Positions 17,311 through 54,424 of a DNA stretch of 61,570 nucleotides are shown here, piece by piece. The translations under genes and the position numbers were made by a program. This stretch comes from a virus (taxonomy: Duplodnaviria; Heunggongvirae; Uroviricota; Caudoviricetes), in the IMG/VR virus record IMGVR_UViG_3300022561_000002; one strand, 5' to 3'. How positions within the stretch are numbered: position 1 is the first letter of the stretch; each line of letters starts with the position of its first letter. The notes below the pieces were generated by a model that saw nothing but the letters and a program-made list of their open reading frames with translations, was not told where the DNA came from and did no database searches.

Positions 17311-17322
17311 AGGAGGGTTACT

Positions 17323-18519: not shown

Positions 18520-18522
18520 AGG

Positions 18523-19038
18523 ATGGCAAGTATAAGAGATATGATGGGGTTAAATCAGGCTAACTTCTCAACTGTAGAAAAAGATTTTTCTGTTTTAATA
18601 GGAAAGATTTTTGAAAATCAAAATTTATTAAAATTACTTTATTATAATGATGCAGATTGTTTAAGTAAACCTGATATTACCGACAACAATATATTAAACG
18701 AAATATCACAAGAGAACGTTAGAATCGTTCCAAATTTAAAAGTTCCAAAGAATGAGGGTTCTTATTTAATTATTACATTTGATCAATTCTCGCCTAATTT
18801 AAATAACCCCGAGTTTTTAGATAATTCAATATTAATCGATGTCCTATGTCCTGTTGATTTGTGGGTTATGGATAGCTATATGTTGAGACCGTTTAAAATT
18901 ATGCACGAAATAAATTCTTTTATAGATAAAAGAAAATTTAATGGAATTGGAAAAGTTAATTTCTTAGGTTCTGCTTTATTAAATTTAGAGGATTATGTCG
19001 GATATCAACTTATATATTCGGTAATCAATGATGTATAA
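18523..19038 (+). CDS. Putative tail completion protein
   Basis: Position two genes upstream of the tail tube. Confidence 0.45.
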   Translation: MASIRDMMGLNQANFSTVEKDFSVLIGKIFENQNLLKLLYYNDADCLSKPDITDNNILNEISQENVRIVPNLKVPKNEGSYLIITFDQFSPNLNNPEFLDNSILIDVLCPVDLWVMDSYMLRPFKIMHEINSFIDKRKFNGIGKVNFLGSALLNLEDYVGYQLIYSVINDV

Positions 19039-19801: not shown

Positions 19802-19821
19802 TATTATAGGAGGTATAATAC

Positions 19822-36106: not shown

Positions 36107-36154
36107 ATTAAAAGATAGAGAACAAACAAATTGCACAGATTAAAAGGAGGTTTT

Positions 36155-38830
36155 ATGAAAAAGATAAAAATAGCTTTTCTTGATATTGTTGGTTTAAGAT
36201 ACAATGGGCACACCCTTAATAAAAGAGGATTAGGTGGCTCTGAATCTTCAACTATATATATGGCAAAAGAATTAAATGACTTAGGTTTTGATGTTACTGT
36301 TTTTTGCAAAATAGAAGGAGATGAACAAAGTTATGATGGTGTAAATTATATTTCAAATGAAAAGTGTAAAGATAATACTGAAAAATTTGATATATTAGTT
36401 ACATTGCGTTCTTGCGTTCCGTATATACCAATACAATATAGAGAAGATGTATATAGAGAAACTGGATATGATATTGAAAATACTATTGGATTAGTTAAAA
36501 ATAGTGGCTATAAAGTTTTATGGTTACATGATACATTTTGCTCAGGAGATAATTGGCTTGAGCACATATGCATAGACGGATATTTTGATGAAATCTTTAC
36601 ATTATCAGATTGGCACAGTAATTATATTATGAATGGTCATACTTGGAGAGGTAGAATCTTCGAAGTATTAAAAAATAAAATTTGGCAAACAAGAGATGGA
36701 ATAAGAAGCTACATAGATGAAGTTGATATATCTAAAAAAGACAAAGATTTATTTGTATACAATGCGTCAGTATCAAAAGGCATGACACCACTATTAGAGC
36801 AGTGTTGGGGTAAAATAAGAGAACAAATACCAACAGCAAAATTAATGGTTATAGGTGGTTATTATAGAGGTGCAAATCATGATAATCCTGATGAACAAGA
36901 GTTACAGTGGATGAAATTAAAAGAAAATTATGATGGAAAAGATGGAGTTCATTTTACAGGTATAATTTCACAAAGAGAGATTGCTGAAATATTAAGTAAG
37001 GCTTCATTAATGGTTTATCCAGCTTTATTTCCCGAAACATTTGGGATTTCTACATTAGAGTCTTTAAATTATAATACACCATTGGTGACGTGTCGCTTTG
37101 GCGCATTGGAAGAAACAGCAATTGAAAAAGCTTGTTATTTAATTAATTATGATATTAACTATAATGAACAACAAATTGATAGATTTGTAGAAATGGTTTT
37201 AAAAGCATATAATGATGATTATTTAAGAAAGCAAAAAATGTATGCATGTAATGAAACAAAAGAAATAAATACATGGGATACGATTGCTTTACAGTGGAAG
37301 CAGCATTTTTATAATAAATTAGACTTATATATGCCATTTAATGAATTAACAAAAGTAAGAAGGGTTAATTCAGAAGCTCAAAGAATATTTAAAAGAAGAT
37401 TTTTAAACAAAGAGGATATAATTGAAAGTAGTACTGTAAACAATAAATTCATTATAATAACACCTGTATATAATGCAGAAAATTATATAAAAAAATGTAT
37501 TGACAGTGTGGCAAATCAGGTATATAATAAATATAAGATGATTATTATAGACGATATGTCTACTGATAATACAGTTAATATAATAAAAGAAACCATAGAA
37601 AATTATCCACCAAATATTAAAAATAAATTTCAGTTAGTAATTAATACTGAGAAAAAATATGCAGTTAGTAATCAAGTTGATGCAATTAACTTATATGAAA
37701 ATGATTCTAGTATTATAGTTCTATTAGATGGAGATGATTGGTTAGTAAATGATAATGGAGTATTTAATTACTTAGATAATCTTTATATTGATGGATGCGA
37801 TATGTCTTACGGTAGTTGTCATTCTTTAGTTGATAACATAGATTTAATATCAGAACCTTATCCTAAGAATGTAATTGAAGAAAAATCTTTTAGAACACAT
37901 TTATTTACTTGGGGTATGCCTTATACACATTTAAGAACTTTTAAAAAAGAATTATTTAATAAAATAGATAAGTCTTTATTTAGAGATGAAAATGGAGAGC
38001 ATTGGAAAGCTGGTGGAGATAATGCTTTATTTTATCCACTGTTAGAAAATGCAAACAATATAAAATGCATTCAAAGAGTTTTAATGATTTATAATGATAT
38101 TAATCCACTAAATGACTATAAAATTAATGGGGAAGAACAAACTAAAACTGCAAATAAAATAAGAGATAAAAAATATGATATTACAGATATGAATGAGTTA
38201 AAAGATATTTATAATGAAGTTTTAGATAGAAATGATAATGCTATAAAATTATTGAAAGATACTCTTGTTAATAGAAAAGATACTTGGATTGATAATACAG
38301 ATGCACCTAATATAATAGATAGAAAAAATTGGCTTAAAGATAAATTTGAGGAATTAAATATATCTAAAGAAAGTGTTATATTAGATATAGGTTCTTGGAC
38401 TGGTGGGTTTATTAATGAATTTTATAAAATGGGATATAAGGATATATCCTGTGTCGAAATTAGTAAAGAAGCATATAAATTAGGAAGTCAAACATATCCA
38501 AGTTGGCACTGGATGAACGGAGATATAGAAGATTTTGTTTTACCACCTATTAAATATGATGTAGTGGTAATGTTTGAAGTCATAGAACATTTAGTAAATC
38601 CAATAGAAGCTATAAATAAAATAAAATTATCTTTAAGTGATAATGGTAAAATATTTTTTAGTATTCCAAAAGAAGATTCTATGAACGCTGATGGTATGGC
38701 TTATGAACATATATCGTATATAACCAAAAAACAACTTGATGAATTAGATGCTAAGGTTGAAGATTTATCATCTAAAGCAACACATTTTAATTGGTATATG
38801 GGATATATAGAAAATAAAAAAAAAGGATAG
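36155..38830 (+). CDS. GT4 + GT2 glycosyltransferase + SAM methyltransferase fusion
   Basis: GLGGSE and PETFGISTLE (GT-B); ITPVYN...IIDDMSTD...DGDD (GT-A); ILDIGSWTG...FEVIEH (class I MTase). AAGGAGG before MKKIK. Confidence 0.9.
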   Translation: MKKIKIAFLDIVGLRYNGHTLNKRGLGGSESSTIYMAKELNDLGFDVTVFCKIEGDEQSYDGVNYISNEKCKDNTEKFDILVTLRSCVPYIPIQYREDVYRETGYDIENTIGLVKNSGYKVLWLHDTFCSGDNWLEHICIDGYFDEIFTLSDWHSNYIMNGHTWRGRIFEVLKNKIWQTRDGIRSYIDEVDISKKDKDLFVYNASVSKGMTPLLEQCWGKIREQIPTAKLMVIGGYYRGANHDNPDEQELQWMKLKENYDGKDGVHFTGIISQREIAEILSKASLMVYPALFPETFGISTLESLNYNTPLVTCRFGALEETAIEKACYLINYDINYNEQQIDRFVEMVLKAYNDDYLRKQKMYACNETKEINTWDTIALQWKQHFYNKLDLYMPFNELTKVRRVNSEAQRIFKRRFLNKEDIIESSTVNNKFIIITPVYNAENYIKKCIDSVANQVYNKYKMIIIDDMSTDNTVNIIKETIENYPPNIKNKFQLVINTEKKYAVSNQVDAINLYENDSSIIVLLDGDDWLVNDNGVFNYLDNLYIDGCDMSYGSCHSLVDNIDLISEPYPKNVIEEKSFRTHLFTWGMPYTHLRTFKKELFNKIDKSLFRDENGEHWKAGGDNALFYPLLENANNIKCIQRVLMIYNDINPLNDYKINGEEQTKTANKIRDKKYDITDMNELKDIYNEVLDRNDNAIKLLKDTLVNRKDTWIDNTDAPNIIDRKNWLKDKFEELNISKESVILDIGSWTGGFINEFYKMGYKDISCVEISKEAYKLGSQTYPSWHWMNGDIEDFVLPPIKYDVVVMFEVIEHLVNPIEAINKIKLSLSDNGKIFFSIPKEDSMNADGMAYEHISYITKKQLDELDAKVEDLSSKATHFNWYMGYIENKKKG

Positions 38831-38831
38831 T

Positions 38832-39446
38832 GTGGAAATGATGAATGATATAAAGAAGAAAATTTTAATTGCAATACCTACTGCTAAAAATATCGAAACG
38901 GATACCTTCAAATCAATTTATAATTTATATAAGCCTGAAAATACTGAATTGCATTTTGAATGTTTTTATGGTTATAATATAGATCAAGTAAGAAATTTAA
39001 TGGCAAGTTATACCATTAATAATAATTTTGATTACATTTTCTGTGTAGATTCGGATATAGTTTTACCTAAAGATTCTTTGATAAAATTATTATCACACAA
39101 TAAAGATATTATAAGTGGTGTATATAGACAAAGATTTTTAGAGGAAAATATGCCAGAGTTGTACTTAAATGAAAATGGTAGAATTTTTAGAGCTACAATT
39201 GAAGACATTAAAGAAGATAAAATCATGGAAGTGAGTAGTTGCGGCTTTGGATGTACATTAATATCTAAAAGTTTATTATATAGAATAGGATATCCACAAT
39301 TTGAATATCATTCTTCTATTGATTTTAATAAAACAATTTCAGAAGATACAGATTTCTGTATCAAAGCAAATAAATGTGGAACTAAAGTATATGTTGACAC
39401 AAGTATTAAATGTGGACATATAGGAAGTTTTGAATTAAAAATTTAA
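38832..39446 (+). CDS. GT-A (GT2-like) glycosyltransferase
   Basis: IAIPT, RN, VDSD, GFGCTLI, SEDTDFC, CGHIG. Confidence 0.85.
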   Translation: MEMMNDIKKKILIAIPTAKNIETDTFKSIYNLYKPENTELHFECFYGYNIDQVRNLMASYTINNNFDYIFCVDSDIVLPKDSLIKLLSHNKDIISGVYRQRFLEENMPELYLNENGRIFRATIEDIKEDKIMEVSSCGFGCTLISKSLLYRIGYPQFEYHSSIDFNKTISEDTDFCIKANKCGTKVYVDTSIKCGHIGSFELKI

Positions 39447-39463: not shown

Positions 39464-40090
39464 TTGGCTATAACACTTCCTTACTCGACGGCAAATGTGC
39501 AATTTGGTACTGACACATATGTTTATGGTTGGTCAACTTCTGTTGGTTCATATTCTAACTCAAGTGTTATGACATCTAGTGGATATACTCGTATAAATTC
39601 TATAACAAGAAATCCGGATGGCACAAGAACTGTTAATGTAACTGTTTATTATTTAATGGCGATATCAAGAAGTGGATCCGATTCTGGAGTTTATACTTTC
39701 CAATCAACTCCAAATGTAAGATTTTATAATTCTGTATTGGCATCGTATATAACTATATATAACGCGGCTTTAACAACTACATGTGCAACTGGTGCATCGG
39801 CAAGTATAACACATTCATCAACAGTGAATATTTCAGTTCCTGCAACATGGTTCGCAACATCAACAGCAACCTGGAATTTTAGTACCACGCAAGAATGTAA
39901 AGTTGTAACAAGCGGAGCAGTATATACTCATACCAAAATAGATGCGGCGTTTATTATTGAAACTTTAAGAAGTATAGTTGTTAATGTAGATGGCGTATTA
40001 AAAACTGCATCAGCAGTATGGGCTAGAACAAATGATACGTTAAATCCACTCATAGATATGAAGATAGATGTTGATGGGGTATTGAAATGA
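39464..40090 (+). CDS. Ser/Thr-rich virion-like protein
   Basis: TTG after AAGGAG; beta-rich; C-terminal VNVDGVLK...VW motif reminiscent of fibre tips. Confidence 0.55.
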   Translation: MAITLPYSTANVQFGTDTYVYGWSTSVGSYSNSSVMTSSGYTRINSITRNPDGTRTVNVTVYYLMAISRSGSDSGVYTFQSTPNVRFYNSVLASYITIYNAALTTTCATGASASITHSSTVNISVPATWFATSTATWNFSTTQECKVVTSGAVYTHTKIDAAFIIETLRSIVVNVDGVLKTASAVWARTNDTLNPLIDMKIDVDGVLK

Positions 40091-41124
40091 GTATGATATA
40101 TGTATTTTATAACAAATATACTTTGGAAATTCTTACGGTATTAAGACCATTTATAAATAATATTGACATAAATGAATTTATTGAAAGTAGACTTATATAT
40201 GATGATAAATTTAAAAATTTAACATATAGTGATATAGATTATATAATAGAGGATACAGAAGAGTATGATTTTTTTAATGATAATCCATCTATATATAAGT
40301 GTATGTATATTGATAATAAAAAACGCAAATTAAAATTTAAATTAACAAAAAATGAAAATGTATTTATTAATACAACATATAATATACAAAAATATAAAAG
40401 AGATTATACAAATGTAGAAATTAATGAAATGTATGAAGAAGATTATATAAATTTTAATCTTAAAAACATTATGATATCAGATAATGATATTGAATTTTCT
40501 TTTGAGTATTTAAAAGATTTAAATATTAGGACTAAGATGGTTAATAAAAGATGGAAAAGTTTTCATAATGATCCATATTTAACTGAATCTTCTCAAGATA
40601 AAACCATGCTAGGAAAATCTATAGCAAAAATAGGAACATATTATCCTATATTAGTTGAACCCCAAAAGTCTGAAAATGGATTATATGCTTTAGAGGGCTC
40701 TCATAGAATAACCTCTTTAAAGCTTCTTCAAATGGAAGGTGGCATTCCAGAAGATTTTAAAATATTTTGTATTCATATGCCATATTCTTATCAAGATATA
40801 GAAACACCGAAAATGTTTACTGTATTAAAAAATCCAATATTAATCAGAAGAATAATCGAAGTTTATTACGGATCTGAAATACTAAATGATTCTATTTTAT
40901 ATGAAAAGGCATTATCTTCAATCAAAGAAGACGGAGATAAAATCATTAATAAATATACTTATGAAACATACATATATACGTTAGAAGAGCTATTGTCTGC
41001 TGTTGACTCATATCCACATTGGTTGAGAGATTTAATCCATATAGATGGTAGTATATTTCCTAGTGAAATAATTAATAAAGAATTAAAATTTAAGGAGTGG
41101 GTAAACGAATGTTATCACATATAA
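40087..41124 (+). CDS. ParB/Srx-fold protein, paralogue 1
   Basis: SIAKIGTYYPILV...LEGSHRITSL. Confidence 0.7.
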   Translation: MSMIYVFYNKYTLEILTVLRPFINNIDINEFIESRLIYDDKFKNLTYSDIDYIIEDTEEYDFFNDNPSIYKCMYIDNKKRKLKFKLTKNENVFINTTYNIQKYKRDYTNVEINEMYEEDYINFNLKNIMISDNDIEFSFEYLKDLNIRTKMVNKRWKSFHNDPYLTESSQDKTMLGKSIAKIGTYYPILVEPQKSENGLYALEGSHRITSLKLLQMEGGIPEDFKIFCIHMPYSYQDIETPKMFTVLKNPILIRRIIEVYYGSEILNDSILYEKALSSIKEDGDKIINKYTYETYIYTLEELLSAVDSYPHWLRDLIHIDGSIFPSEIINKELKFKEWVNECYHI

Positions 41125-42029
41125 GAAGAGTAGACATAGAGTTTCATTCATTTTGTAATAGAAGATGTATATGGTGTCCTAATACAGACTTTATAAGAGA
41201 TGATGAAGATATTGAAATGAGTGATGAACTTTATTCAAAAATCATAAATGAATTAAAAGATAATAATTTTGGAAAGTATCCTAGATTTCCTTTATCAGAA
41301 AATCGATCTCCAAAAGATAGTCCTAATTATTCAAAATTTATTATCAATCAGCCAGTTTTATCCTTTCTTGGTTATCAAGAACCATTATCAAATATACCAT
41401 TATTAAAGAAAAGAGTGCAAGAGGCTTGGGAAAAATTACCGCCTCATATAGAACTTGTTTCTAATACAAATGGAGATTATCTTACAGAAAAATCATTAGA
41501 CGGTTTGTTACTTACTACTTTAAATATTAAAGATTACGATTCTAAAGGTATGGAGTATTGGAAAGAAAGATTAAAAAAACTTGGCGTATTAATAATAGAT
41601 ATAGATGAAAATATAGAGCAAATTATAGGTGTCCATAAAAATGTAGGAAATGTAACTTGTTATTGTAATTGGCCTAAGCATATTGACCTAGAAGATAGAG
41701 GTGGATTTTTGAAAAAAGAAGATATCCCTGATATAAAATGGCGAAATAATGCGAAAGAACGAACTGAAATTTGTTTAGAACCAAGCTATTATATCAACAT
41801 TCATTACAATGGAGATATTATGCCGTGTTGTCATTTAAGAATGGATAATCCTATGCATAAAGAATTCATTCTAGGTAATGTAAATAATAATACTTTAGTA
41901 GAAATACATAATAATGAAAAAGCTAATAATTTGAAAGAAATACTTTCGATAGAAGATGGTAATTTCCCTTCAACTTGTTTAAATTGTCAAAAAATTAGGC
42001 AAGAGGGGTTAAACAGGTTTCCCTCATGA
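41109..42029 (+). CDS. Radical SAM/SPASM(twitch) protein 1
   Basis: CNRRCIWC; NTNG; CLEP...GDIMPCC...GN...CLNC. Confidence 0.9.
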   Translation: MLSHIRRVDIEFHSFCNRRCIWCPNTDFIRDDEDIEMSDELYSKIINELKDNNFGKYPRFPLSENRSPKDSPNYSKFIINQPVLSFLGYQEPLSNIPLLKKRVQEAWEKLPPHIELVSNTNGDYLTEKSLDGLLLTTLNIKDYDSKGMEYWKERLKKLGVLIIDIDENIEQIIGVHKNVGNVTCYCNWPKHIDLEDRGGFLKKEDIPDIKWRNNAKERTEICLEPSYYINIHYNGDIMPCCHLRMDNPMHKEFILGNVNNNTLVEIHNNEKANNLKEILSIEDGNFPSTCLNCQKIRQEGLNRFPS

Positions 42030-43030
42030 TATATGGAATAATTTTTTATGATAGCATAGATGGAGAAATGCTTTATAATACTAGTTGTATAGATTATAAT
42101 AATATAGAAAAAATTATAGATAATTGTTATGAATATCTAAATATAGAATATAAAAGCATTAAAAATATTTTATATAAATTATATGATTATAATTTATACA
42201 AAGACAATTTTGAAAAACATCAAAGTGTTAGAGTTACATCAGATGGAGAAATATTTTTTTCAGATAAAGAAATAAAATATAGAATTGGTCTTAAACATAG
42301 CATGACAGATAGATGGTATCCACTATTCGAAGAAATGTCAGGCATTTATAATAAAGAAAATCAAGTTATAAGTCTTGAAATATTAACATATTACTACAAT
42401 GATTTTATTAATTATAATCTTAAAAATATTTGTAAAATAGTGCCGTTTCATTTTTTACACCCTAATGAAATGTTTAGATCTAATGAAAATAATGAGAAAG
42501 CGTTAGTAAGATGGGGCGAAGACTTAATACCAACGTTAGTTGAAATGTGTGAAGAGCTTAATATAAATAACTGTATATTTCCATTTCAGGTTAGAAAAAA
42601 GAATGATAGCTTTTTGATATTAGATGGTTCTCATAAATTAATAGCAATGAAGGAATTAATTAAAAACGATTCTTTTAAAATAGATAGAAAGATTCTTTCA
42701 ATTGAATTTAATAGTGTTAATCCTACTTCTATTGATAATAACACTATTAATTGTAAATTAGATAACCCAATTACTATGCATATACCTAAATTATTATTAA
42801 ATAAATATCATTTTATAAACTATCTAACTATGCAAGATTTTGATGATAATATTATGGAAGTTACTGTAGATAGATATATTGAAATGGTTACTTTATTTAG
42901 AGTTTATATATTAGAATTAACTATTCCTATAAGAAGATATAAAATAATAACAGGAAAGACATTAAGTCCGTTTGATTTTATAGAGGATGAATACAAATTT
43001 AAGATATGGATGGAAGACGATAATGAATAA
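42026..43030 (+). CDS. ParB/Srx-fold protein, paralogue 2
   Basis: CIFPFQV...LDGSHKLIAM. Confidence 0.65.
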   Translation: MIYGIIFYDSIDGEMLYNTSCIDYNNIEKIIDNCYEYLNIEYKSIKNILYKLYDYNLYKDNFEKHQSVRVTSDGEIFFSDKEIKYRIGLKHSMTDRWYPLFEEMSGIYNKENQVISLEILTYYYNDFINYNLKNICKIVPFHFLHPNEMFRSNENNEKALVRWGEDLIPTLVEMCEELNINNCIFPFQVRKKNDSFLILDGSHKLIAMKELIKNDSFKIDRKILSIEFNSVNPTSIDNNTINCKLDNPITMHIPKLLLNKYHFINYLTMQDFDDNIMEVTVDRYIEMVTLFRVYILELTIPIRRYKIITGKTLSPFDFIEDEYKFKIWMEDDNE

Positions 43031-43766
43031 AATTCAAAAAAGACTAATAGAAAACTGGTCTGACCTTCAACTTAATATATGGCAAAACATACAAAATGAT
43101 TATACTAGAAAAATAATTGTAGATAAAACATATATTATTACTAATCTTTATAAAGAACAAAAGATTATTTTAGATAATTATATTGATTATAAATTTATTA
43201 AAGAATTTTATAATTATTTCATAGATAATATTAAAATAATAATGGGAAATTATTTATATGAATATATATACCCACAAGATACTAGGATCATAGATGTAAA
43301 AGGCGGCATATCTTTTAATGGATTTTCATTTTCTTTATCCTCAATGTGTGAAAGTATTTTAAAAAATGGATTATATATACCTTTAATATGCGATAGACAA
43401 AGCAATGACACACTAGCTATTGTTGGAGGAAGACATAGAATAATTGCTCTAAAAGAAATATATAATAAAAGAAAATTTTTATGTCTTATGTTTAATGAAA
43501 GACAATCTGATATAAAATGTGAGTTCACGTTACCAACTATATTATTAGAAAAATATTTTAATAATTATGATATTATATATTGTAAAATAGATAAATATTT
43601 TTCTATAGTATATATTGATAATCCAGTGGATTTATGGATTTTATTTAAATTACAAGAAAAGGAACTTGATTTAATATTTGAAATGTATTCAGAGCAATTA
43701 TATGAAAACAATATATTTGGTTCTGAATTACTTTTTAAAAAAGGAGAAGAGGTATGTTATGAATGA
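43023..43766 (+). CDS. ParB/Srx-fold protein, paralogue 3
   Basis: SILKNGLYIPLIC...VGGRHRIIAL. Confidence 0.72.
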   Translation: MNKIQKRLIENWSDLQLNIWQNIQNDYTRKIIVDKTYIITNLYKEQKIILDNYIDYKFIKEFYNYFIDNIKIIMGNYLYEYIYPQDTRIIDVKGGISFNGFSFSLSSMCESILKNGLYIPLICDRQSNDTLAIVGGRHRIIALKEIYNKRKFLCLMFNERQSDIKCEFTLPTILLEKYFNNYDIIYCKIDKYFSIVYIDNPVDLWILFKLQEKELDLIFEMYSEQLYENNIFGSELLFKKGEEVCYE

Positions 43767-45030
43767 ACTAAAGCCATTAGGAAAATTTAATTATGCAAAA
43801 ATGAACGGGAGTATGCCTTTAAGAGAAAAGGTTATTTATTTAGAATCGTATTTATCATCAAGAAAAATATTCTCTAAATATTACCTAGATGAATATAGTT
43901 TAGAGAAAAGAAATAAAAAACATGATTGGATTGAAAAATATTTTAGTAAAGTAATATCTTTAGAAGGAATTAATATGGTAGAGTCTACCACAAACGAAAT
44001 AAAAGGAGATATTGTAGATTTAAGTAATATTAAAAAAGGTGTACTATCGGAGATAATGTATATTGGAGATAAATTGAGGTGTAAATTTTTATATCTTGAA
44101 AATGATGGTTCTATTGAAATGATGACATTATTTTTAACAGAAGAAGAATGTGATGAAATGAGAATATTAAGTGAAGATTTAGACTATTTATTTTATGAAG
44201 AAAGTTTATCTCTTGGGGATGACGTTATTAGCAATCCAAATATTATAGTTGAAAAAATAAGAAATAAAAAAGATAGAAATTATGTTACTACAAAATTTGA
44301 AGGCGATTGGACAGAAGAACAAAAAGATACTTGGGAAATAATAAAGCAAATTAGTCCCAGAGTCCGCATTGATGGAAAAGTTCATATTAATGCAGTTTTA
44401 TATTCTACCGGATATTTATTTCATAATGATAAAAGTTTGAGAATGGACTTTATTAATGAATTTGTTAATGCTTTTTATTCTAATGTAAAAAATATGACAA
44501 AGGCTTTTGATTATGATTATTTGCAATTTTCAGAAATTCAGGATAAACTTCAGGATTTAAGGAACGGCGCAGGCTTTGATGGATTTTCTTTTACTTTAGA
44601 TTCATTAAAAAACGATATATATACAAATGGTTTATTTTTCCCAATGTATGCCTATATAAATAAAGAGCCTGGTAAGTATGTTATCTGCGGCGGCAGGCAT
44701 CGACTTATCGCTATTAATCAATTAGTAGAAGAAGGACTATGGAAAGATAGAAAAATCCTATGTATGTTTTGGGATTCTCGTAAACAATTTGATAGTATAG
44801 ATTTAATTATTCCAAATATAATTATAGAAAAAATGTTATATAAATTAAATATTGATATAAAACCATATTCAAGTGGATTTTCAACTGTAGGAGTTAAAAA
44901 CATTATTGACTTTTGGATTGTTATGCGTGTATTTGAAAAAGAAATGGACTTTTTAATAGAAAAATATGAAGATGAATTACTTAGTTATGGTATAAAGGCA
45001 TCTAAATTTATTAACCCTTGGATGGTGTAG
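43759..45030 (+). CDS. ParB/Srx-fold protein, paralogue 4 (extra N-terminal domain)
   Basis: DIYTNGLFFPMYA...CGGRHRLIAI. Confidence 0.72.
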   Translation: MNELKPLGKFNYAKMNGSMPLREKVIYLESYLSSRKIFSKYYLDEYSLEKRNKKHDWIEKYFSKVISLEGINMVESTTNEIKGDIVDLSNIKKGVLSEIMYIGDKLRCKFLYLENDGSIEMMTLFLTEEECDEMRILSEDLDYLFYEESLSLGDDVISNPNIIVEKIRNKKDRNYVTTKFEGDWTEEQKDTWEIIKQISPRVRIDGKVHINAVLYSTGYLFHNDKSLRMDFINEFVNAFYSNVKNMTKAFDYDYLQFSEIQDKLQDLRNGAGFDGFSFTLDSLKNDIYTNGLFFPMYAYINKEPGKYVICGGRHRLIAINQLVEEGLWKDRKILCMFWDSRKQFDSIDLIIPNIIIEKMLYKLNIDIKPYSSGFSTVGVKNIIDFWIVMRVFEKEMDFLIEKYEDELLSYGIKASKFINPWMV

Positions 45031-45031
45031 T

Positions 45032-45754
45032 ATGGATGATATAGCTTTCTCAGAGATACAAAAAAAATATTTAAAAATTAAGAAATCAAAATACCATGAA
45101 ACAAATGGTAAGCAAAATAATAATAGTATTTTAAATTATAATCCACAAAAAAACTTTAATGAAATTATACTTTTATATAATATCTTTATTGATAATTTAA
45201 AATCAATGATAGATAGTAAATCTTTTGATGGTGGATACTGCGGAAAAGAGTTTTTAAAAAAACAAATTAGAGATTCAAAAGAAGAAATTGATTTTAATAA
45301 ATTCTTTATTCCATATGCGGAATTAGAGTATATTGTATATAATACTGGATGCTATCTACCAATGGTAGTATTTAAAACAGAAGAAAAATATAATATAATG
45401 GAATGTTTACATAGCAGGTATCCATCTACTATGTTGCAAATATTATTTTCAGAAAATAAAATAGATAATAGAAGTATATTTTATATAGAGAAAAGTTTTA
45501 TTAAAAAAAATAGTGAATGTAATTTGAAAATTCCAAAACAACTTTATGATGAGGTTATTATTAATTTAGAATTAGAAGTAATAGAAACACAATCAAATTT
45601 TTTAACAATAAAAACAAAAGATAATATGGACGCATGGTTAATATTTAAATTAATTCACAAAGAAGTAAGTTGGGTAACAGGCAAATATGGGTTTGAGTTA
45701 TACAATATGGGAATGAAGCCATCTAATTTTATAAATATAGAGGAGAATAATTAA
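45032..45754 (+). CDS. ParB/Srx-fold protein, paralogue 5 (degenerate motif)
   Basis: NTGCYLPMVV...ECLHSRY; shares C-terminal motifs with paralogues 3 and 4. Confidence 0.55.
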   Translation: MDDIAFSEIQKKYLKIKKSKYHETNGKQNNNSILNYNPQKNFNEIILLYNIFIDNLKSMIDSKSFDGGYCGKEFLKKQIRDSKEEIDFNKFFIPYAELEYIVYNTGCYLPMVVFKTEEKYNIMECLHSRYPSTMLQILFSENKIDNRSIFYIEKSFIKKNSECNLKIPKQLYDEVIINLELEVIETQSNFLTIKTKDNMDAWLIFKLIHKEVSWVTGKYGFELYNMGMKPSNFINIEENN

Positions 45755-45755
45755 A

Positions 45756-46457
45756 ATGATATATAATAAAAATACTGTTATTGCCGAGTTAGCTGGTAAA
45801 GATAGTATAGTAGCTATAATAAAATACGCAAAGGAAAATAAAGATAGTTATATTCTTCCTACAATTATTAAAGTTCCTTCTGAGGAAAGTAGACACCAAG
45901 AGCTTTTTTCATTTTATGAACAATTACAAAATTATATTACAACTCTTGGGTCACATATGTATACACCTTTATTTTTAGATGAATCTACTTATTGGTGGAG
46001 TCTTAATCAACCAATCGCAAGTATGATAAAAGAATATAATTTCTATAGTCCATGTATTGCGTGTCATGGATTATTACACTCTATAAGGATTCCTTTGGCT
46101 CAGGTCTATAGTGGTAAAATACTAACTGGAGAAAAGCTTTTACATAATGGGAAAATAAAAATAAACCAAAATAGCATAGTTCTTGATATTTTTGATGATT
46201 TATTTAAGAAATATAATATTGAAGTTATTAGGCCGATAGATGATGATGCGAATGAAATTATAGATGAATTTTATAATCAATATAATATAGAGGAAGTAAA
46301 ATATATAAAATGTTATATGAGTGGAAATTCAAACGTTAATCACATAAATGATTTAAAAGAATATAATATAAATAAATATTGTTATGAATACCTTATACCT
46401 AAACTAGATAATATTATTAAAGAGATAAAAGAGGAGGGTAATATATATGACAAGTGA
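45756..46457 (+). CDS. PP-loop (adenine nucleotide alpha hydrolase-like) protein
   Basis: VIAELAGKDS (SGGxDS-like), PCIACH, ILTGE, KINQ, CYMSGN. Confidence 0.6.
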   Translation: MIYNKNTVIAELAGKDSIVAIIKYAKENKDSYILPTIIKVPSEESRHQELFSFYEQLQNYITTLGSHMYTPLFLDESTYWWSLNQPIASMIKEYNFYSPCIACHGLLHSIRIPLAQVYSGKILTGEKLLHNGKIKINQNSIVLDIFDDLFKKYNIEVIRPIDDDANEIIDEFYNQYNIEEVKYIKCYMSGNSNVNHINDLKEYNINKYCYEYLIPKLDNIIKEIKEEGNIYDK

Positions 46458-47310
46458 AAATTGCGATTATATAGAAAGACAAAAAGACTTAAATAAAAAT
46501 GGGAAAAGATTATATGGTAAAAAAATGTTACAAAGCCATGTTCCATATAATATTTGGAACGAGGAAACAGATACTTTTGATTTAGATAAAATACTTAAAA
46601 TATATGAATGCTTTAAGTATAATATGATTTTACTATCTGAAGATTTTATACCACACTGGATTGAACCAGAAGGGTTATTATATACAACAAAATCTTTGAT
46701 TTGGGATTGGACTGATGAAAGTGAGTTAAATAAAACTGCTGATAGTATAGAAAAATATGGACTTTACTTTCCAATATTTGTCTTACCTAAAGGTATGTTA
46801 CATAATCAGATATGCGATTTAGAAGAAGAAGCTAGATTAAAAAATTTGAATATATATAATTCATATAATGGAAATCATAGGATAGATGCAATACAGTTTT
46901 TAAAAGAAAACAATAGATTCAATAAAAAAATACTTGTTTATGAGATTCCTCCATATTGTCAAAAATCATGTACTGGATTTAAATATACATTTATAGATCA
47001 TAATGAACCAAATGAATTGACCGACTATAAACTTAAAACAGGAGTTAGACTATACCATCTATCTTATTTAGAAGATGAAATGAAAATGTCTAATTTAGAG
47101 TTTTGTAAAAATATAGAAGATGGAATAGTCCAAGTTCGTGTTGATAATTACAATACTGCATTTAGGATATTAACAGAAATGCAGAATGCGCTAGAGGCAC
47201 CATTAACTAGATATTTTGAATTGTATAATAAATTACCAGACGGCTTAGATAATTCTTTTTTTAATAACTATGAGATATGGAAAAAGGAAGTGGTTAAATA
47301 TGACTGGTGA
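46447..47310 (+). CDS. ParB/Srx-fold protein, paralogue 6
   Basis: SIEKYGLYFPIFV...NGNHRIDAI. Confidence 0.72.
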   Translation: MTSENCDYIERQKDLNKNGKRLYGKKMLQSHVPYNIWNEETDTFDLDKILKIYECFKYNMILLSEDFIPHWIEPEGLLYTTKSLIWDWTDESELNKTADSIEKYGLYFPIFVLPKGMLHNQICDLEEEARLKNLNIYNSYNGNHRIDAIQFLKENNRFNKKILVYEIPPYCQKSCTGFKYTFIDHNEPNELTDYKLKTGVRLYHLSYLEDEMKMSNLEFCKNIEDGIVQVRVDNYNTAFRILTEMQNALEAPLTRYFELYNKLPDGLDNSFFNNYEIWKKEVVKYDW

Positions 47311-47485
47311 GGAAATTATTCAGTTGGGTAAAGCTTGTAAATCAATACATTTTGAAATACCTTTATGCGTTGACTGGGAAACCCGAAAATACTGTGATAG
47401 AAAATTATGTTGTACGGTGTGTCCTCAACTATATGGATGCGATATTGTTTGTGATGAATTGGCAAAAATTTTATATAAAATATAA
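47300..47485 (+). CDS. Cys-rich peptide (61 aa, 8 Cys)
   Basis: Start overlaps the upstream gene end; MTGEEII...YCDRKLCCTVCPQLYGCDIVC. Confidence 0.7.
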   Translation: MTGEEIIQLGKACKSIHFEIPLCVDWETRKYCDRKLCCTVCPQLYGCDIVCDELAKILYKI

Positions 47486-47553: not shown

Positions 47554-48369
47554 ATGATAAACAATTTAAGATTAGTTGAAATAGAGCTTTTTTCATATTG
47601 CAATAGACAATGCGGATGGTGCCCTAATAATACCATAGATAGACTTTCGTTTAATAAGTTTATTGATACAAAAGTTTTATTACATCTTTTAAAAGAATTA
47701 AAAGAAAATAATTATGATGGAGCAATAACCTTTTCTAGATATAATGAACCTATGTCGCACATAAAACAATTTAAAGATTTTTTATATGAAATAAAAAATG
47801 AACTTCCTAATAATAAACTAATAACAAATACAAACGGGGATTTTATTTCTAAAGAAAATTTAATGGGCTTAATGTTAGATGAATTAACCATAATGGACTA
47901 TGATGGATTAGGAATAGATGGTTGTATAGAGGTATTAAATAAAGCAAATGTAATTATTGATGATGTGAAATATCCTTATATATATGGACATTTTGACTCT
48001 ATAGAAATATTATATTTTGTTGATTGGCAAAAAAATAGAAAGATTACTGATAGAGGTGGTTTTCTAAAAAGCTATTCGCAAATATTACGAGATAAGCCGT
48101 GTTTTGAACCAAATTATTTTGTAGGTATTAATTACGATGGAACTGTATCTCCTTGTTGTAATATAAGAAATGATATAGAACAACATAAACCATATATAAT
48201 TGGAGACCTAAATAATAACTCTTTCTCAGAAGTATTATCAAGTTATAAATCTAATTTAATAAAAAAAATATGTAATAACGGGAGTTTTATAAAAGATTCC
48301 CCATGTTATATGTGTGAAAATAGTGGCGGAAGATATACAAGAGGGAATGGGGGCATATCATATGAATAA
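47554..48369 (+). CDS. Radical SAM/SPASM(twitch) protein 2
   Basis: CNRQCGWC; NTNG; CFEP...GTVSPCC...GD...CYMC. Confidence 0.9.
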   Translation: MINNLRLVEIELFSYCNRQCGWCPNNTIDRLSFNKFIDTKVLLHLLKELKENNYDGAITFSRYNEPMSHIKQFKDFLYEIKNELPNNKLITNTNGDFISKENLMGLMLDELTIMDYDGLGIDGCIEVLNKANVIIDDVKYPYIYGHFDSIEILYFVDWQKNRKITDRGGFLKSYSQILRDKPCFEPNYFVGINYDGTVSPCCNIRNDIEQHKPYIIGDLNNNSFSEVLSSYKSNLIKKICNNGSFIKDSPCYMCENSGGRYTRGNGGISYE

Positions 48370-49015
48370 AAAAGTAGGGATATACATTCCCGCAAGGTTA
48401 AACAGTGAAAGACTTCCAAATAAACAAATACTACCAATAGGAGATACTTGTTTATTTGATATTGCATGTAAGAAATTGAACGAACTGCCAACGTATATTA
48501 ATAAGTATGCTTTAATTTATGAAAAAGAATTAATAGATATAGCAAGTAAGTATCCTAATATAAATATAATTCAAAGAAGCGAAGAGACCGCGAAAGCAGA
48601 AACTCCTCTTAATTATATTTTTCAAGATATGAAATACGTAGAGGATACTCATTTAATGTTCTTGAACCCTTGTCTTTTGTTTTTAACGAAAGAAACTATA
48701 TTAAAAGCATTAGATGAATTTATAAATTCTGATAACGATTATGCTACAAGTGTAAAACCATTTCATAATTGGATTTTAGATGAAAGAGGATTATGTCTGA
48801 ATGATATTAATTATAAAGAGTTAACAACTAAAAAAATCGAAGGATTATATCAATTTGCTCATTGTTTCCATATCTTTAATAAAGAAAACTTTTTTAAAGA
48901 CGGATATATGTTAAAATCAATGTTTTTGCCATTAGTTATTGCGGATGAAGAGACTATTGATGTTGATACTTTAGAAGAGTATAAATATGCGAGGTGGAAA
49001 TATGAAAATATATGA
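48362..49015 (+). CDS. neuA: CMP-nonulosonate synthetase-like cytidylyltransferase
   Basis: IPARLNSERLPNK; DVDTLEEY. Confidence 0.82.
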   Translation: MNKKVGIYIPARLNSERLPNKQILPIGDTCLFDIACKKLNELPTYINKYALIYEKELIDIASKYPNINIIQRSEETAKAETPLNYIFQDMKYVEDTHLMFLNPCLLFLTKETILKALDEFINSDNDYATSVKPFHNWILDERGLCLNDINYKELTTKKIEGLYQFAHCFHIFNKENFFKDGYMLKSMFLPLVIADEETIDVDTLEEYKYARWKYENI

Positions 49016-49310
49016 GGTTGATTTAGATGGAACTCTATGTACAAATACGTATGGAAATTATGAGAATGCTCAACCCATCCTCGAGAACATCGAAAAAATT
49101 AATAACCTGTATAGAAATGGTAACATTATTAATATTAATACTGGTCGTGGTAGCACCACTAGTATTGATTGGTATAATTTAACAGAGAAACAATTAAAAT
49201 TATGGGAAATAAAATACCACACTTTAACAGTTGGTAAAAAACCCTATTATGATTATATTATAGATGATAAAGCAATAAATGAGTGCGAGGAGGATTGGGA
49301 ATGTTTATAG
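49002..49310 (+). CDS. Minimal HAD phosphatase (EcbF/BcbF-like)
   Basis: DLDGTLC, TGR, KP, IIDDKA. Confidence 0.82.
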   Translation: MKIYEVDLDGTLCTNTYGNYENAQPILENIEKINNLYRNGNIININTGRGSTTSIDWYNLTEKQLKLWEIKYHTLTVGKKPYYDYIIDDKAINECEEDWECL

Positions 49311-50119
49311 CAGAAATTGGAATAAACCATGGCGGAGATATAAATATAGCTAAAGAATTAATTCTTATGGCTAAGAGGTCTGGCGCAAATGTAGTTAAAT
49401 TTCAGAAACGAAATGTAGAAGAAAATATATTACCACAAGACTTAAATACAACAAGAGAAACCTTAAAGGGAACTCGATCTTATTTAGATTATAAAACAGA
49501 TTTAGAATTTGAAATCTATGCTTATAGAGAGATAGATAAATTCTGTAAGTCTATTAATATGCCATGGACTGTTAGTGTTTGGGATATTACAAGTGTAGAG
49601 TTTATTTCACAATTTGATATCCCTTTTATTAAAGTTCCAAGTGCAAGAATTAATGAATTAGATTTATTAGAAGCTATTAACTCTACTGGTATTCCTGTGG
49701 TATTAAGTACTGGAATGAGTTCAAAAGAAGAAGTCGATAGTGCTATAAATGCTCTTGATAATCTTTCTTGTATAATGCACTGTGAAAGTATATACCCTCC
49801 AAAAGATAATGAATTAAATTTGAATATAATATCTTATTTAAAGGATTGTTATCCCAATATTAAAATTGGATATAGTAGTCATGATACATCAATTTATCCT
49901 ATGTTATGCGCGAGTACTCTAGGGGCAGAAATATTTGAAGCACATATAACATTAAATAAAAATATGATTGGTTCAGATCAAAAATGTAGCTTTGAAGAGA
50001 AGGAGTTAACCGAAATGATTTCTTTAATCAATAAAAGCAAACTATGGTTGGGGAATAAAGAAATTACTTGTTTAGAATCAGAAGAGCCTGCCAAGAAGAA
50101 ACTAAGACGAAAGTCTTAA
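49301..50119 (+). CDS. neuB: N-acetylneuraminate synthase family, lacking the C-terminal SAF domain
   Basis: IAEIGINHGG, VKFQKR, LSTGM, HCESIYP, GYSSHD, EAHITL, GSDQ. Confidence 0.9.
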   Translation: MFIAEIGINHGGDINIAKELILMAKRSGANVVKFQKRNVEENILPQDLNTTRETLKGTRSYLDYKTDLEFEIYAYREIDKFCKSINMPWTVSVWDITSVEFISQFDIPFIKVPSARINELDLLEAINSTGIPVVLSTGMSSKEEVDSAINALDNLSCIMHCESIYPPKDNELNLNIISYLKDCYPNIKIGYSSHDTSIYPMLCASTLGAEIFEAHITLNKNMIGSDQKCSFEEKELTEMISLINKSKLWLGNKEITCLESEEPAKKKLRRKS

Positions 50120-52280: not shown

Positions 52281-53795
52281 ATGAGCGTAATAACAAGAAA
52301 AATAGATAATAACCCATCTATTGTAGCAGATGATATTTTATTATTTGATGCAAACGCAGGGGTTGGTTCATATGCAAATACATTAAGTGGAAGTTTTACT
52401 TACCCAAGTGGTGATAAGCCTTGTTCTATTATGATTAATAAAGGAAAAGATATATTCTCTTCTGCATGTCATTCTTGGTTGGGTTTCCCAGAGTCAGTAA
52501 TCTATAGATACAAAGATGGAACATTTGGAATTGGTAAATTCAAATCGACTTCTGAAATTCCAAATAGAGCAAATGTTCTTTGGGCGATTGGTGGTTTAGG
52601 TTTATTAGATAAATATAATCCAGCAGAAGAAGGTTTTTCAAAAGGGGTTAAACCTAATGGTACTACATTTGATTACACAGATGTATTAAGATATACTAAT
52701 CATACAATATTAGGTATAAAAAATAATCAATGTTATTTAATATATGTAAAATTAAAAACTGGCGCGCAAGTAAATGCTTTTGCTAGATGGTGTGATTTTG
52801 AATATGCCATTATGTTAGATGGAGGTCATATCGCGGCTATTAATGGTAGTGAGAGTTATGCAAAAATTAATCTATCTACAAAACAAGGATATACTATACA
52901 AGGTATTAATGGGAATTTCGCCACAGGAACCCCACCAGTAGTTACACCAACTACGCCACCTACAAATAGTAGCAAAAAAAAAATAGCAATTGACTCAGGG
53001 CATAGCAAAGTAACTTATGGTAAACGCTCTTTTGATGGAACTTTACTTGAATATGAATTCAACTTTGATGTATCTACAAGACTTAAAAGACATTTAGATA
53101 GACATAATACAGAGTCTAAAATCTTTCAAGTAGAAAATACTAATGTTAGTACAGAAATTACAGAAAGATGTAAGCAAATTAATGCTTATGAACCTGATAT
53201 TTGTATAAGTATTCATGCCAATGCATTTTCTACTTCGTGGAATACTGTTGGTGGTTGGGAAATATTTGATTATAAATTAAGTGGCGAAAGTCATAAATTA
53301 GCTGAAGCAATTTATAGTACAAGTATTCCGTTCTTAAAATTAGCTGATAGAGGAATTAAAGATGGCTCTCATTTAGGAATGATTGCTTCAACAACTATGC
53401 CTGCTGTTTTAGTAGAACATGGTTTTTATACAAATAAAGAAGAATGTGCTAGATTAAAGACGGCCGCATTTAGAGAAGACTGTGCTATTGCAGACGCAAA
53501 AGGTATTTTAAAATACTTTGGAATTGCGTGGATAGAAGAAAAGATTGAAATACCAACATCAACACCTACTCCAAGCGACTCCCTTTATAGAATTCAAGTA
53601 GGCGTTTTTTCAACACAAGATAGAGCAAGTAAATTAAGAACAGAGTTGAGAGTTTTAGGATATCCTTCTCTTCTTACAATAGTAGACAATCTTTTTAAAG
53701 TACAAGTAGGTGCTTTCCATAGTATTGAAAATGCCAAAGGATTACAAGCAGAGTTGTTAGCAAAAGGATATAATACTATTATTCAGAAAGACTAA
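52281..53795 (+). CDS. Endolysin: phosphodiester-glycosidase-like domain + Amidase_3 + 2 SPOR
   Basis: WAIGG, AIMLDGGH (NAGPA-like); IDSGH, EYEFN, SIHAN, AVLVEHGF; YRIQVGVF and FKVQVGAF. Confidence 0.85.
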   Translation: MSVITRKIDNNPSIVADDILLFDANAGVGSYANTLSGSFTYPSGDKPCSIMINKGKDIFSSACHSWLGFPESVIYRYKDGTFGIGKFKSTSEIPNRANVLWAIGGLGLLDKYNPAEEGFSKGVKPNGTTFDYTDVLRYTNHTILGIKNNQCYLIYVKLKTGAQVNAFARWCDFEYAIMLDGGHIAAINGSESYAKINLSTKQGYTIQGINGNFATGTPPVVTPTTPPTNSSKKKIAIDSGHSKVTYGKRSFDGTLLEYEFNFDVSTRLKRHLDRHNTESKIFQVENTNVSTEITERCKQINAYEPDICISIHANAFSTSWNTVGGWEIFDYKLSGESHKLAEAIYSTSIPFLKLADRGIKDGSHLGMIASTTMPAVLVEHGFYTNKEECARLKTAAFREDCAIADAKGILKYFGIAWIEEKIEIPTSTPTPSDSLYRIQVGVFSTQDRASKLRTELRVLGYPSLLTIVDNLFKVQVGAFHSIENAKGLQAELLAKGYNTIIQKD

Positions 53796-53807: not shown

Positions 53808-54083
53808 TTGAAGAAGATGTTTCAATTTTCTAATCTTATTGTAACTTTAGTAATTTTTATGAATCTATGGTTTACCACAAGATGCTTAGATGCTTTTGTT
53901 TTAACAGGAAACGAACCAATAGTTTTGATTGGAGCATTTTTTGCTTTTACAACTGGTGAGCTTTGGATGTTGTCTTCAATCACAAAGAAAAAATTATTGA
54001 GAGATATTACAATTAGAAAATTAAATAGAGTAGTACGAATAAATAAAGACGTTATATTAAAGTGTAAAAAAGGAGAATCATAA
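53808..54083 (+). CDS. Membrane protein, holin-associated
   Basis: Two hydrophobic segments and a basic tail, next to the endolysin. Confidence 0.6.
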   Translation: MKKMFQFSNLIVTLVIFMNLWFTTRCLDAFVLTGNEPIVLIGAFFAFTTGELWMLSSITKKKLLRDITIRKLNRVVRINKDVILKCKKGES

Positions 54084-54424
54084 TGGATATGGATTTAGTT
54101 TTAAAAATAATGTTGGCTCTTGTAACACTTATGGGAGCTATATTGACGGGATTAGTTATCCCTTATATCAGGACTAAAACAACTTTGGCTGAAAGAGAAA
54201 CCGCTCTTGCTAAAACAAATGAAGCTCTTCGTTGGATTAGATTTGCGATGTTGGCTGCAGAAGAAATATTTAAGTTGCCTAAATCAGGAGCAGAGAAAAA
54301 AGCTTATGTTATAGAATTCTTAAAAGGCAAAGGTATTGAATTGACGACTGAAGAGTTAAATGTATTAATAGAAAGTCTAGTTATGGAAATTAATAATGTA
54401 ACAGAAGAATTAATAGAAGAATAG
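54083..54424 (+). CDS. Holin, LL-H-like
   Basis: N-terminal TM; AAEE...GAEKKAYV...IESLV. Confidence 0.75.
   Translation: MDMDLVLKIMLALVTLMGAILTGLVIPYIRTKTTLAERETALAKTNEALRWIRFAMLAAEEIFKLPKSGAEKKAYVIEFLKGKGIELTTEELNVLIESLVMEINNVTEELIEE

Follow-up and report, generated by a model that had tools for sequence, protein, structure and literature searches.

Why would a phage carry six ParB-like genes among genes for the synthesis of a sugar? The window analysed here is a 61,570-nucleotide stretch of DNA from a virus of the Caudoviricetes (IMG/VR record IMGVR_UViG_3300022561_000002), and an earlier note on it had proposed that positions 40087-47310 encode six full-length paralogues of the ParB/sulfiredoxin (Srx) fold without DNA-binding domains, forming an expanded and possibly heteromeric enzyme family. 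All six open reading frames were found on the plus strand and fill the proposed span: p1 (40087..41124), p2 (42026..43030), p3 (43023..43766, with a start at 42987 or 43023), p4 (43759..45030, with a long N-terminal extension and an uncertain start at 43678, 43759 or 43813), p5 (45032..45754) and p6 (46447..47310). Two non-paralogous genes lie within the same span, one for a radical SAM enzyme (41097-42029) and one for a PP-loop enzyme (45756-46457). The motifs quoted for p1 to p6 (EGSHR, DGSHK, GGRHR, GGRHR, ECLHSR and NGNHR, respectively) were all seen in the sequences, and in each of the six a G-x-Y/F-x-P element precedes the GxHR-like motif.

BLASTP among the window copies joined p2 to p5 (p3-p4 5e-25, p4-p5 5e-15, p3-p5 5e-7, p2-p3 2e-5), and the pairwise similarity of p1 and p6 to the other copies was marginal. 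Profile-profile comparison of separately aligned subfamilies by hhalign brought in p1 and p6 (E 4e-14 to 4e-30): p1 matched the p3/4/5 subfamilies at E 4e-14, p6 matched them at E 3.7e-14, p1 matched p6 at E 5e-21, and p2 matched p1 over full length (308 columns) at E 3.7e-30, the two sharing an N-terminal domain. Judged from sequence comparison, the homology of the six proteins is far beyond chance, and the expanded paralogue family of the earlier note is borne out.

AlphaFold models of p1 (pLDDT 90.1; residues 133-243 form the ParB core) and of the p4 core (pLDDT 80.7) matched only structures of the ParB/Srx superfamily in Foldseek and VIA searches, namely Srx, SerK, SbnI, ParB, Noc, KorB and PadC. 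A ParB_N/sulfiredoxin alpha/beta core was found, followed in both models by a mixed beta/alpha domain, and the matches to ParB, Noc and KorB end with the N-domain. The helix that follows the second core strand opens with the phosphate-binding G-x-(R/H)-R motif in all but the p5 subfamily, and HMMER placed the GxHR of the family against the GERR box that Noc and Spo0J carry. N(LKN), GxYxP and GxHR reach a conservation of at least 80% among about 180 family sequences, and in the p1 subfamily G183, T184, E203, G204, H206 and R207 are invariant. Because none of the six proteins matched Pfam ParB_N (PF02195) at E<=1, the resemblance to ParB is at the level of fold and motif only; the best PDB profile match to a characterised ParB/Srx member was marginal (E 0.04), and matches of p1, p3 and p4 to the PHROG 'ParB-like partition protein' were weak (E 0.004-0.05). 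Pfam found no HTH_ParB, ParB_C or KorB domain in p1 to p6, in agreement with the claim that they have no recognisable DNA-binding domain. In the ~30 columns after the GxHR helix, where a Box III of the ENxxR type, the CTP-hydrolysis motif of ParB clamps, was sought, no residue apart from k.lc was at least 50% conserved, and roughly 45 window ORFs scanned gave no ParA-like match.

The suggestion that p2 and p5 are degenerate members held for one of the two. The p5 subfamily has no GxHR in any of nine sequences (HSKYP, HTKYT, CSEYA and similar), whereas most of the p2 subfamily retains DGxHR, in which the p2 of the window carries a conservative R-to-K change. Beyond the window, the six proteins belong to a phage family without annotation that comprises 244 representative clusters at E<=1e-3. 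The p1 type makes up 74 of 148 family representatives and is the one type present in every minimal cassette, in which it is the single copy; the window has six copies and another locus at least 11. In other phages, every one of the window paralogues is matched by orthologues of its own at 34-66% identity (58-66% for p6 in loci L014 and L013), compared with at most 30% between window copies, and L013 holds p1, p3, p4, p5, the PP-loop gene, p6, a Cys-rich protein and the second radical SAM enzyme in the order of the window. The best explanation is that the copies are ancient, functionally differentiated paralogues of one phage protein family.

The neighbouring genes, all on the plus strand, point to glycan synthesis near tail fibres. 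Upstream are a tail fibre with collagen repeats that may serve as glycan acceptor (33145..36036; Pfam Collagen E 2e-50) and shares 73% identity over its C-terminal 56 aa with a fibre gene upstream of the L005 cassette; a GT1/GT4-GT2-methyltransferase fusion (36131..38830; Pfam Glycos_transf_1, Glycos_transf_2 and Methyltransf_23); and a small glycosyltransferase-like protein (38832..39446) with matches to PHROG 1574 and glycosyltransferase PHROGs and weak GT2-type matches in Pfam. A Ser/Thr-rich fibre-like protein (39464..40090) follows, its stop codon overlapping the start of p1, and its orthologues likewise lie directly 5' of p1-type genes (45% identity in L005, 36% in L008 and 26% in L006, L007 and L009). 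Within the array, rSAM1 (41097..42029; Pfam SPASM and Radical_SAM) is a BtrN-like radical SAM/twitch enzyme, the profile of its orthologues matching BtrN (PDB 4M7S) at E 1.8e-24, and the PP-loop ATPase-like enzyme (45756..46457) resembles ThiI, QueC and DUF7411 (ESM Atlas features 0.96-0.97, structure TM 0.8) and has orthologues in L013, L014, L005 and L017. After p6 come a small 8-Cys protein (47270..47485) and rSAM2 (47554..48369; Pfam SPASM, Fer4_12 and Radical_SAM), a second BtrN-like radical SAM/twitch enzyme (E 5.3e-14 to 4M7S). In L013 the 8-Cys protein is conserved, and in L014 it is fused N-terminally to the rSAM2 orthologue; it probably serves rSAM2 as an accessory metal/Fe-S domain. 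Because both radical SAM enzymes match BtrN over full length, they are predicted to be sugar-type enzymes. The cassette ends with a CMP-ulosonic/nonulosonic acid cytidylyltransferase (48314..49015; Pfam CTP_transf_3, weak NCBIfam PseF and KdsB), a small HAD phosphatase (48987..49310; NCBIfam capsule biosynthesis phosphatase 9e-6, Pfam Hydrolase_3) and a NeuB-family synthase without a SAF domain (49283..50119; Pfam NeuB 1.3e-59, and NCBIfam NeuB_NnaB 1.5e-61, which is under the equivalog cut-off).

The same association recurs in other phages. A ParB-like gene abuts a BtrN-like radical SAM gene in 12 of 13 related loci, within tail-fibre modules; the HAD phosphatase, the CMP-transferase and NeuB are the usual companions of the pair, and the latter two are present in 10 of the 13, the remaining three being short contigs. 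Six of 148 representatives (P0012, P0021, P0024, P0026, P0030 and P0061) are fusions in which a p3/p4-type domain sits C-terminal to an rSAM1-type enzyme, and L005 has an additional rSAM::ParB-like protein of 687 aa. P0123 is a ParB-like::PP-loop fusion, and in L017 a tandem ParB-like gene is paired with a PP-loop gene and no radical SAM gene. Four representatives are tandem ParB-like::ParB-like proteins, and since such fusions exist elsewhere, the earlier idea of heteromers is plausible. We found no paper in the literature that describes this module.

Thus, the linkage and the fusions to BtrN-type radical SAM and PP-loop enzymes in a sugar cassette suggest that the ParB-like proteins are partners of enzymes and not DNA-partition proteins. 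We tentatively favour, at somewhat less than even confidence, the reading that they are nucleotide-binding partner subunits, adaptors or activators, of sugar-tailoring enzymes, a role for which the gene context speaks no less than it does for an enzyme acting on its own. The operon would make a CMP-activated sialic-acid-like (Kdn/NulO-type) sugar via NeuB, the HAD phosphatase and the cytidylyltransferase, which the two BtrN-type radical SAM dehydrogenases would then tailor, with the PP-loop ATPase added in expanded operons. Each paralogue would consist of a ParB/sulfiredoxin-fold nucleotide-binding core and a family-specific alpha/beta C-terminal domain; its retained GxHR may bind a nucleotide, which could be an NTP or else the cytidine-phosphate end of the activated sugar, so that the subunit, physically paired with its cognate catalytic partner in the window phage, would hold or present the substrate to it. 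p5, as a member that does not bind, would have a structural role, possibly in heteromers, and the glycan may be destined for the Ser/Thr-rich or collagen-like fibre proteins. A simple one-to-one pairing fails because the six ParB-like genes outnumber the three candidate partner enzymes, and some loci have at least 11; to our knowledge, BtrN itself, in the butirosin pathway, needs no partner protein.

The main alternative, in line with the kinase or NTPase family suggested in the earlier note, is one that we consider unlikely on balance: the paralogues would be kinases or phosphotransferases that act on small molecules autonomously, as members of the SerK/SbnI/Srx type, and each would phosphorylate a hydroxyl or acid group of its own in the sugar or in a precursor. 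One of them might supply the sugar-phosphate for a NeuB-plus-HAD '9-phosphate' route or make a leaving group beside the ketone from the BtrN-like enzymes. Both models have SerK, SbnI and Srx among their best structural matches, and all characterised non-DNA-binding ParB/Srx enzymes that we know of (these same three) transfer phosphate from ATP or ADP. GxHR is kept in five of the six copies and across the family, a conservation that fits a catalytic phosphotransferase as well as a binder, and the cassette has a HAD phosphatase yet no recognisable kinase. However, no counterpart of the catalytic base of SerK and SbnI could be assigned; an acidic residue that precedes GxYxP (D162 of p1) is conserved in the p1 subfamily only; the catalytic Cys of Srx is absent; and Foldseek alignments to SerK and SbnI that extend beyond the core (~200-270 columns) have an rmsd of 10-17 Å. 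Recurrent fusion to radical SAM enzymes, to the PP-loop enzyme and to themselves is what one would sooner expect of subunits than of kinases working independently in a pathway, and the p5 subfamily is conserved despite its missing motif.

The other alternatives place the ParB-like proteins on the acceptor, on a peptide or on DNA. A CTP-binding ParB fold might bind the CMP-ulosonic acid and glycosylate Ser/Thr-rich or collagen-like fibres; multiple paralogues would then serve multiple acceptor sites, comparable in function to Maf paralogues. Such an unconventional CMP-sugar transferase would suit the translational coupling of p1 to the conserved Ser/Thr-rich protein, and no sialyltransferase-like gene was recognised among the window ORFs scanned, nor a canonical glycosyltransferase among the inspected ORFs around the minimal cassettes of L006, L010, L011 and L012. 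Nevertheless, this is improbable: glycosyl transfer by a ParB/Srx fold is without precedent, glycosyltransferase genes lie close by in the window and in L008, the absence elsewhere covers only part of the flanking ORFs, and the radical SAM and PP-loop fusions are left unexplained. We hold it to be just as improbable that the SPASM/twitch enzymes cross-link or oxidise Ser/Thr-rich or Cys-rich proteins in a RiPP-like modification of fibres, with the ParB-like domains recognising the substrate. In its favour are the SPASM domains, the Ser/Thr-rich protein before p1 in several phages, and two genes located upstream of the L005 array, which encode a Cys-rich repeat protein of 228 aa and an anSME-like rSAM::ParB-like fusion, but no peptide maturase scores comparably to the sugar/cyclitol dehydrogenase BtrN for either window enzyme, the link to NeuB and the CMP-transferase is constant, and the 8-Cys protein is a domain of rSAM2 in L014 rather than a free precursor. 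Pairs of ParB-like and PP-loop proteins are known from the Dnd and IbrAB systems, and together with the weak PHROG partition matches they might suggest a DNA-directed role in partition, as a nuclease or as a DndB/IbrB-like accessory of DNA modification with the PP-loop enzyme. This is highly improbable, since Pfam found no HTH, ParB_C or DndB match, no conserved Box III was seen, the partner radical SAM enzymes are BtrN-like, and the genes lie in a tail-fibre/lysis module beside sugar genes and not with replication or packaging genes.

A more specific form of the partner-subunit reading, which we regard as rather doubtful, is that the paralogues are a new class of specificity subunits that grip the CMP-ulosonic acid and steer the radical SAM and PP-loop enzymes to different sugar positions, diversifying the glycan. 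If so, the cytidine-nucleotide handle would be gripped while the radical SAM dehydrogenases and a PP-loop amidotransferase/thiolase are directed around the nine-carbon sugar, and gain or loss of paralogues, of which a phage has from 1 to at least 11, would diversify the tail-fibre glycan combinatorially. Phages would then possess a sugar-editing machine specific to them and independent of oxygen, without a described counterpart.

Among known systems, the CTPase clamps ParB, Noc and KorB of chromosomes and plasmids have the same N-domain fold, and their arginine-box position aligns with GxHR. Unlike them, the phage family has no HTH, ParB_C or conserved Box III that we could find and forms arrays of 1-11 copies beside metabolic enzymes. 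Sulfiredoxin (6KY4, 1XW3) has a catalytic Cys within F-G/S-G-C-H-R where the window copies have S, S, R, R or N, and GGCHR was seen in one distant family member only; the phage proteins have extra domains and 2-4 times its length, and their context is sugar tailoring, not peroxiredoxin repair. To the free serine kinases SerK (Thermococcus; 5X0B/5X0E) and SbnI (Staphylococcus; 5UJD/5UJE) the profile similarity is marginal (E 0.72 to SbnI). VIA aligned 81-92 residues with model ranges reaching into the C-domain, but the C-terminal domains do not appear to superpose on the phage models (rmsd >10 Å), and SerK and SbnI, unlike the phage paralogues, are single-copy and neither linked nor fused to radical SAM or PP-loop enzymes. 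DndB and IbrB are ParB-like proteins with a DGQHR motif that pair with the PP-loop/PAPS-reductase-like DndC and IbrA, and the window likewise combines D/E-G-x-H-R ParB-fold proteins with a PP-loop ATPase, encoded between p5 and p6. However, no phage paralogue matched DndB or IbrB in Pfam or NCBIfam, the window PP-loop enzyme is ThiI/QueC/DUF7411-like and not PAPS-reductase-like, and the locus is a sugar cassette, not one of DNA modification. Phage ParB homologues without a DNA-binding domain have been described as cognate-specific activators of an oxidising enzyme, a 5mYOX thymine dioxygenase, and they kept this role when residues of their NTP site were mutated (PMC13229309). The likeness, compared at the level of the shared fold, is a phage ParB nucleotide-binding domain without a DNA-binding domain; the 5mYOX partner is an Fe/2OG dioxygenase acting on DNA (PMC13229309), whereas the candidate window partners are BtrN-like radical SAM and PP-loop enzymes, and no dioxygenase was seen in the cassette. 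We regard these activators as an analogy, of mechanism only, for the partner role proposed here.

The window was found to cover a large uncultured phage's late region, and contigs carrying array genes reach about 127 kb in length. A tape-measure protein (21995-27583) is followed by baseplate genes, a collagen-repeat fibre (33145-36036), a GT1-GT2-methyltransferase fusion, a second glycosyltransferase-like gene, and a Ser/Thr-rich fibre-like protein (39464-40090) directly ahead of the array of six ParB/sulfiredoxin-fold paralogues (p1 to p6; 40087-47310, + strand). Downstream of the array lie genes for a cytidylyltransferase, a small HAD phosphatase and a NeuB-family synthase, in that order, then a tail-tip-domain protein, an endolysin with Amidase_3 and C-terminal SPOR repeats (52281-53795), and a Holin_LLH-type holin (54083-54424). 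Between 36.1 and 50.1 kb every gene is encoded on the + strand and stops overlap or abut the starts that follow, so that this region forms one operon-like unit. Elsewhere, the window encodes a 600-aa NodU/CmcH-type carbamoyltransferase (Carbam_trans_N and Carbam_trans_C; 2601-4403, left end, opposite strand), a PIN-PhoH fusion (5776-6984, + strand), and a 1279-aa DnaE-type DNA polymerase III alpha with PHP, finger and HHH domains (57468-61307, - strand).

The six open reading frames and the motifs quoted for them in the earlier note were recovered exactly as first described. Two genes within the array span are not paralogues: a radical-SAM/SPASM gene (rSAM1, 41097-42029) and a gene for a 233-aa protein (45756-46457). 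BLASTP among the window copies linked p3 with p4 (5e-25), p4 with p5 (5e-15), p3 with p5 (5e-7) and p2 with p3 (2e-5), and gave p1 and p6 marginal links only. When the subfamilies were aligned separately and compared pairwise by hhalign, p1 and p6 each matched p3/4/5 (E 4e-14 and 3.7e-14, respectively) and each other (5e-21), and p2 matched p1 across 308 columns (3.7e-30), p1 and p2 also having an N-terminal domain, about 100 aa long, in common. Therefore, BLASTP for p2 to p5 together with the subfamily profiles for p1 and p6 established that all six proteins are homologous, as the note had supposed.

When 1.84 billion representative proteins were searched with a profile built on the 200-aa core common to the paralogues, 244 clusters passed E<=1e-3, of which 84 passed E<=1e-10. 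Each window paralogue has its own orthologue group, with 74 representatives for the p1 type, 26 for p4, 18 for p3, 13 for p6, 11 for p2 and 6 for p5. Identity is at most 30% among the window copies and 34-66% to orthologues elsewhere. Since every copy resembles its orthologues in other phages more than it does the adjacent copies, a recent tandem duplication was ruled out, and the array is old and differentiated.

Pfam and NCBIfam scans matched no family in any of the six proteins, and PHROG gave weak ParB matches. In a profile of the six, G-x-Y-x-P and G-x-H-R aligned to the corresponding ParB box of Noc/Spo0J at marginal E values (0.04-0.5), a p1 profile against PDB sequences returned non-significant rows only, and ESM Atlas look-ups were in accord with the fold assignment. 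The expected lack of a DNA-binding domain held, in that Pfam detected no HTH or ParB C-domain. In an alignment of some 180 members of the family, conservation of N(LKN), GxYxP and GxHR reaches 80% or more, and no Box III-like motif is conserved. GxHR, a predicted phosphate-binding motif, is the sole strongly conserved functional motif of the ParB-fold domain. It is absent throughout the p5 subfamily; the p2 subfamily mostly has DGxHR, and p2 of the window has DGSHK.

In the butirosin pathway, the radical-SAM dehydrogenase BtrN acts on 2-deoxy-scyllo-inosamine, oxidising one of its secondary alcohols. A profile built from rSAM1 orthologues matched BtrN (PDB 4M7S) over its whole length with an E value of 1.8e-24, and the second radical-SAM enzyme of the window, rSAM2 (47554-48369), matched BtrN by itself, as a single sequence, at 5.3e-14. 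Since both matched BtrN and peptide maturases scored far lower, rSAM1 and rSAM2 are predicted to be sugar/cyclitol-type enzymes, not RiPP maturases. Between p6 and rSAM2 lies a small open reading frame with eight cysteines (47270-47485), which is conserved in a related locus, L013 (6446-6664). Because in another locus, L014 (10894-11130), it is fused as an N-terminal extension to the rSAM2 orthologue, the eight-cysteine protein is probably an accessory metal/Fe-S domain of rSAM2, and its candidacy as a RiPP precursor was rejected.

The 233-aa protein had no Pfam match, and its alignment against the PDB gave nothing significant. ESM Atlas identified it as a PP-loop ATPase (features 0.96-0.97; TM about 0.8 to ThiI/QueC/DUF7411-type clusters). 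The combination of NeuB, a HAD phosphatase and a cytidylyltransferase is that of the phosphate-dependent Kdn/sialic-acid route established for Bacteroides Kdn, and from their family matches we infer that the three window genes encode a route of this type.

To place the array, we compared 13 related loci, of which seven were on IMG/VR contigs and six on assembly contigs. A minimal cassette, present in L006-L012 and in every case within a tail or fibre module, has the order fibre-like protein, p1-type ParB-like gene, two BtrN-like radical-SAM genes, cytidylyltransferase, HAD and NeuB. L013 has an expanded cassette with the gene order of the window and with rSAM1 fused to a p3-type domain, and L014 carries no fewer than 11 ParB-like genes together with two fusions of this kind. 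L016 carries a p1-type gene, three BtrN-like genes, a tandem ParB-like gene and a fourth radical-SAM gene, along with CMP-transferase/HAD, NeuB and an endolysin. Overall, 12 of the 13 loci have a ParB-like gene adjoining a BtrN-like one, and CMP-transferase and NeuB were seen in ten loci, the other three being short contigs. In L011, an IMG/VR phage, two more radical-SAM genes, coding for 459 and 449 aa and without a SPASM match (17184-19884), lie about 3 kb downstream of the cassette.

The exception is L017, where a 461-aa tandem ParB-like protein directly precedes an orthologue of the 233-aa PP-loop protein (33% identity; 4261-6359). Because this pair stands on a 10-kb contig that lacks radical-SAM and NeuB genes, the ParB-like/PP-loop pair may act independently of the radical-SAM enzymes. 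The PP-loop gene also recurs in expanded cassettes. Among 148 family representatives, we found six rSAM::ParB-like fusions, four tandem ParB-like proteins, and two ParB-like::PP-loop fusions, one clear (P0123) and one weak (P0016). L005 encodes an additional rSAM::ParB-like protein of 687 aa (4402-6465), which is anSME-like and lies ahead of a p1/rSAM1/p2 array, two genes past a 228-aa protein with about 30 cysteines in CxxxC-type repeats (2789-3475). The 687-aa and 228-aa proteins may constitute a separate protein-modification module.

The ParB-fold domain thus repeatedly adjoins or is fused to a BtrN-like enzyme, a PP-loop enzyme or its own copies, a pattern typical of subunits in a multi-protein machine. 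A predicted complex of rSAM1 with p1 scored 0.66 against 0.59 for an unrelated-chain control, a margin that speaks neither for nor against their pairing. According to a 2026 study (PMC13229309), phage ParB homologues without a DNA-binding domain can activate an oxidising tailoring enzyme, each being specific for its cognate partner. Because of the fusion and adjacency pattern, the conserved GxHR and this precedent, we favour, at slightly less than an even chance, the reading that the ParB-fold proteins are nucleotide-binding partner or adaptor subunits for the tailoring enzymes of a CMP-ulosonic-acid pathway. On this reading p5 would be a structural, non-binding member.

The main rival, that they are autonomous phosphotransferases of the SerK/SbnI/Srx kind, would neatly provide the kinase absent from the cassette; set against the recurrent fusions to other enzymes, we regard it as possible though rather unlikely. 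That they are unconventional CMP-sugar transferases seems improbable to us, a role in protein modification is doubtful to the same degree, and a DNA-directed role, for a family in which HTH and ParB C-domains went undetected, is very improbable.

A word-based homologue search with p3 returned p3 itself only, and one with the p1 profile returned nothing but unnamed hypothetical proteins. Neither the array (blastn) nor p1 and rSAM1 (tblastn) had a match in 50,697 deposited phage genomes, and the numerous radical-SAM genes of the Campylobacter phages CP220 and CPt10 proved unrelated by tblastn. No published account of a phage module combining ParB-like, radical-SAM and nonulosonic-acid genes was found in the literature. 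In our view the finding adds to the ParB/Srx superfamily both a new family and a new partnership.

If the proposal is correct, it defines a widespread unannotated phage cassette, its ParB-like family alone having 244 representative clusters, that apparently gives tail fibres or the infected cell a modified sialic-acid-like sugar, with a bearing on host recognition and on the evasion of immunity or defence in anaerobic communities. A BtrN-type enzyme with a nonulosonic acid as substrate would represent radical-SAM chemistry of a new kind, and the natural fusions are constructs at hand for biochemistry and structure determination. The ParB/sulfiredoxin fold is known from CTP-gated DNA clamps, from the repair of sulfinic acids and from serine kinases; the proposal, if correct, would add a fourth role, that of a modular partner for radical-SAM and PP-loop enzymes that tailor carbohydrates.
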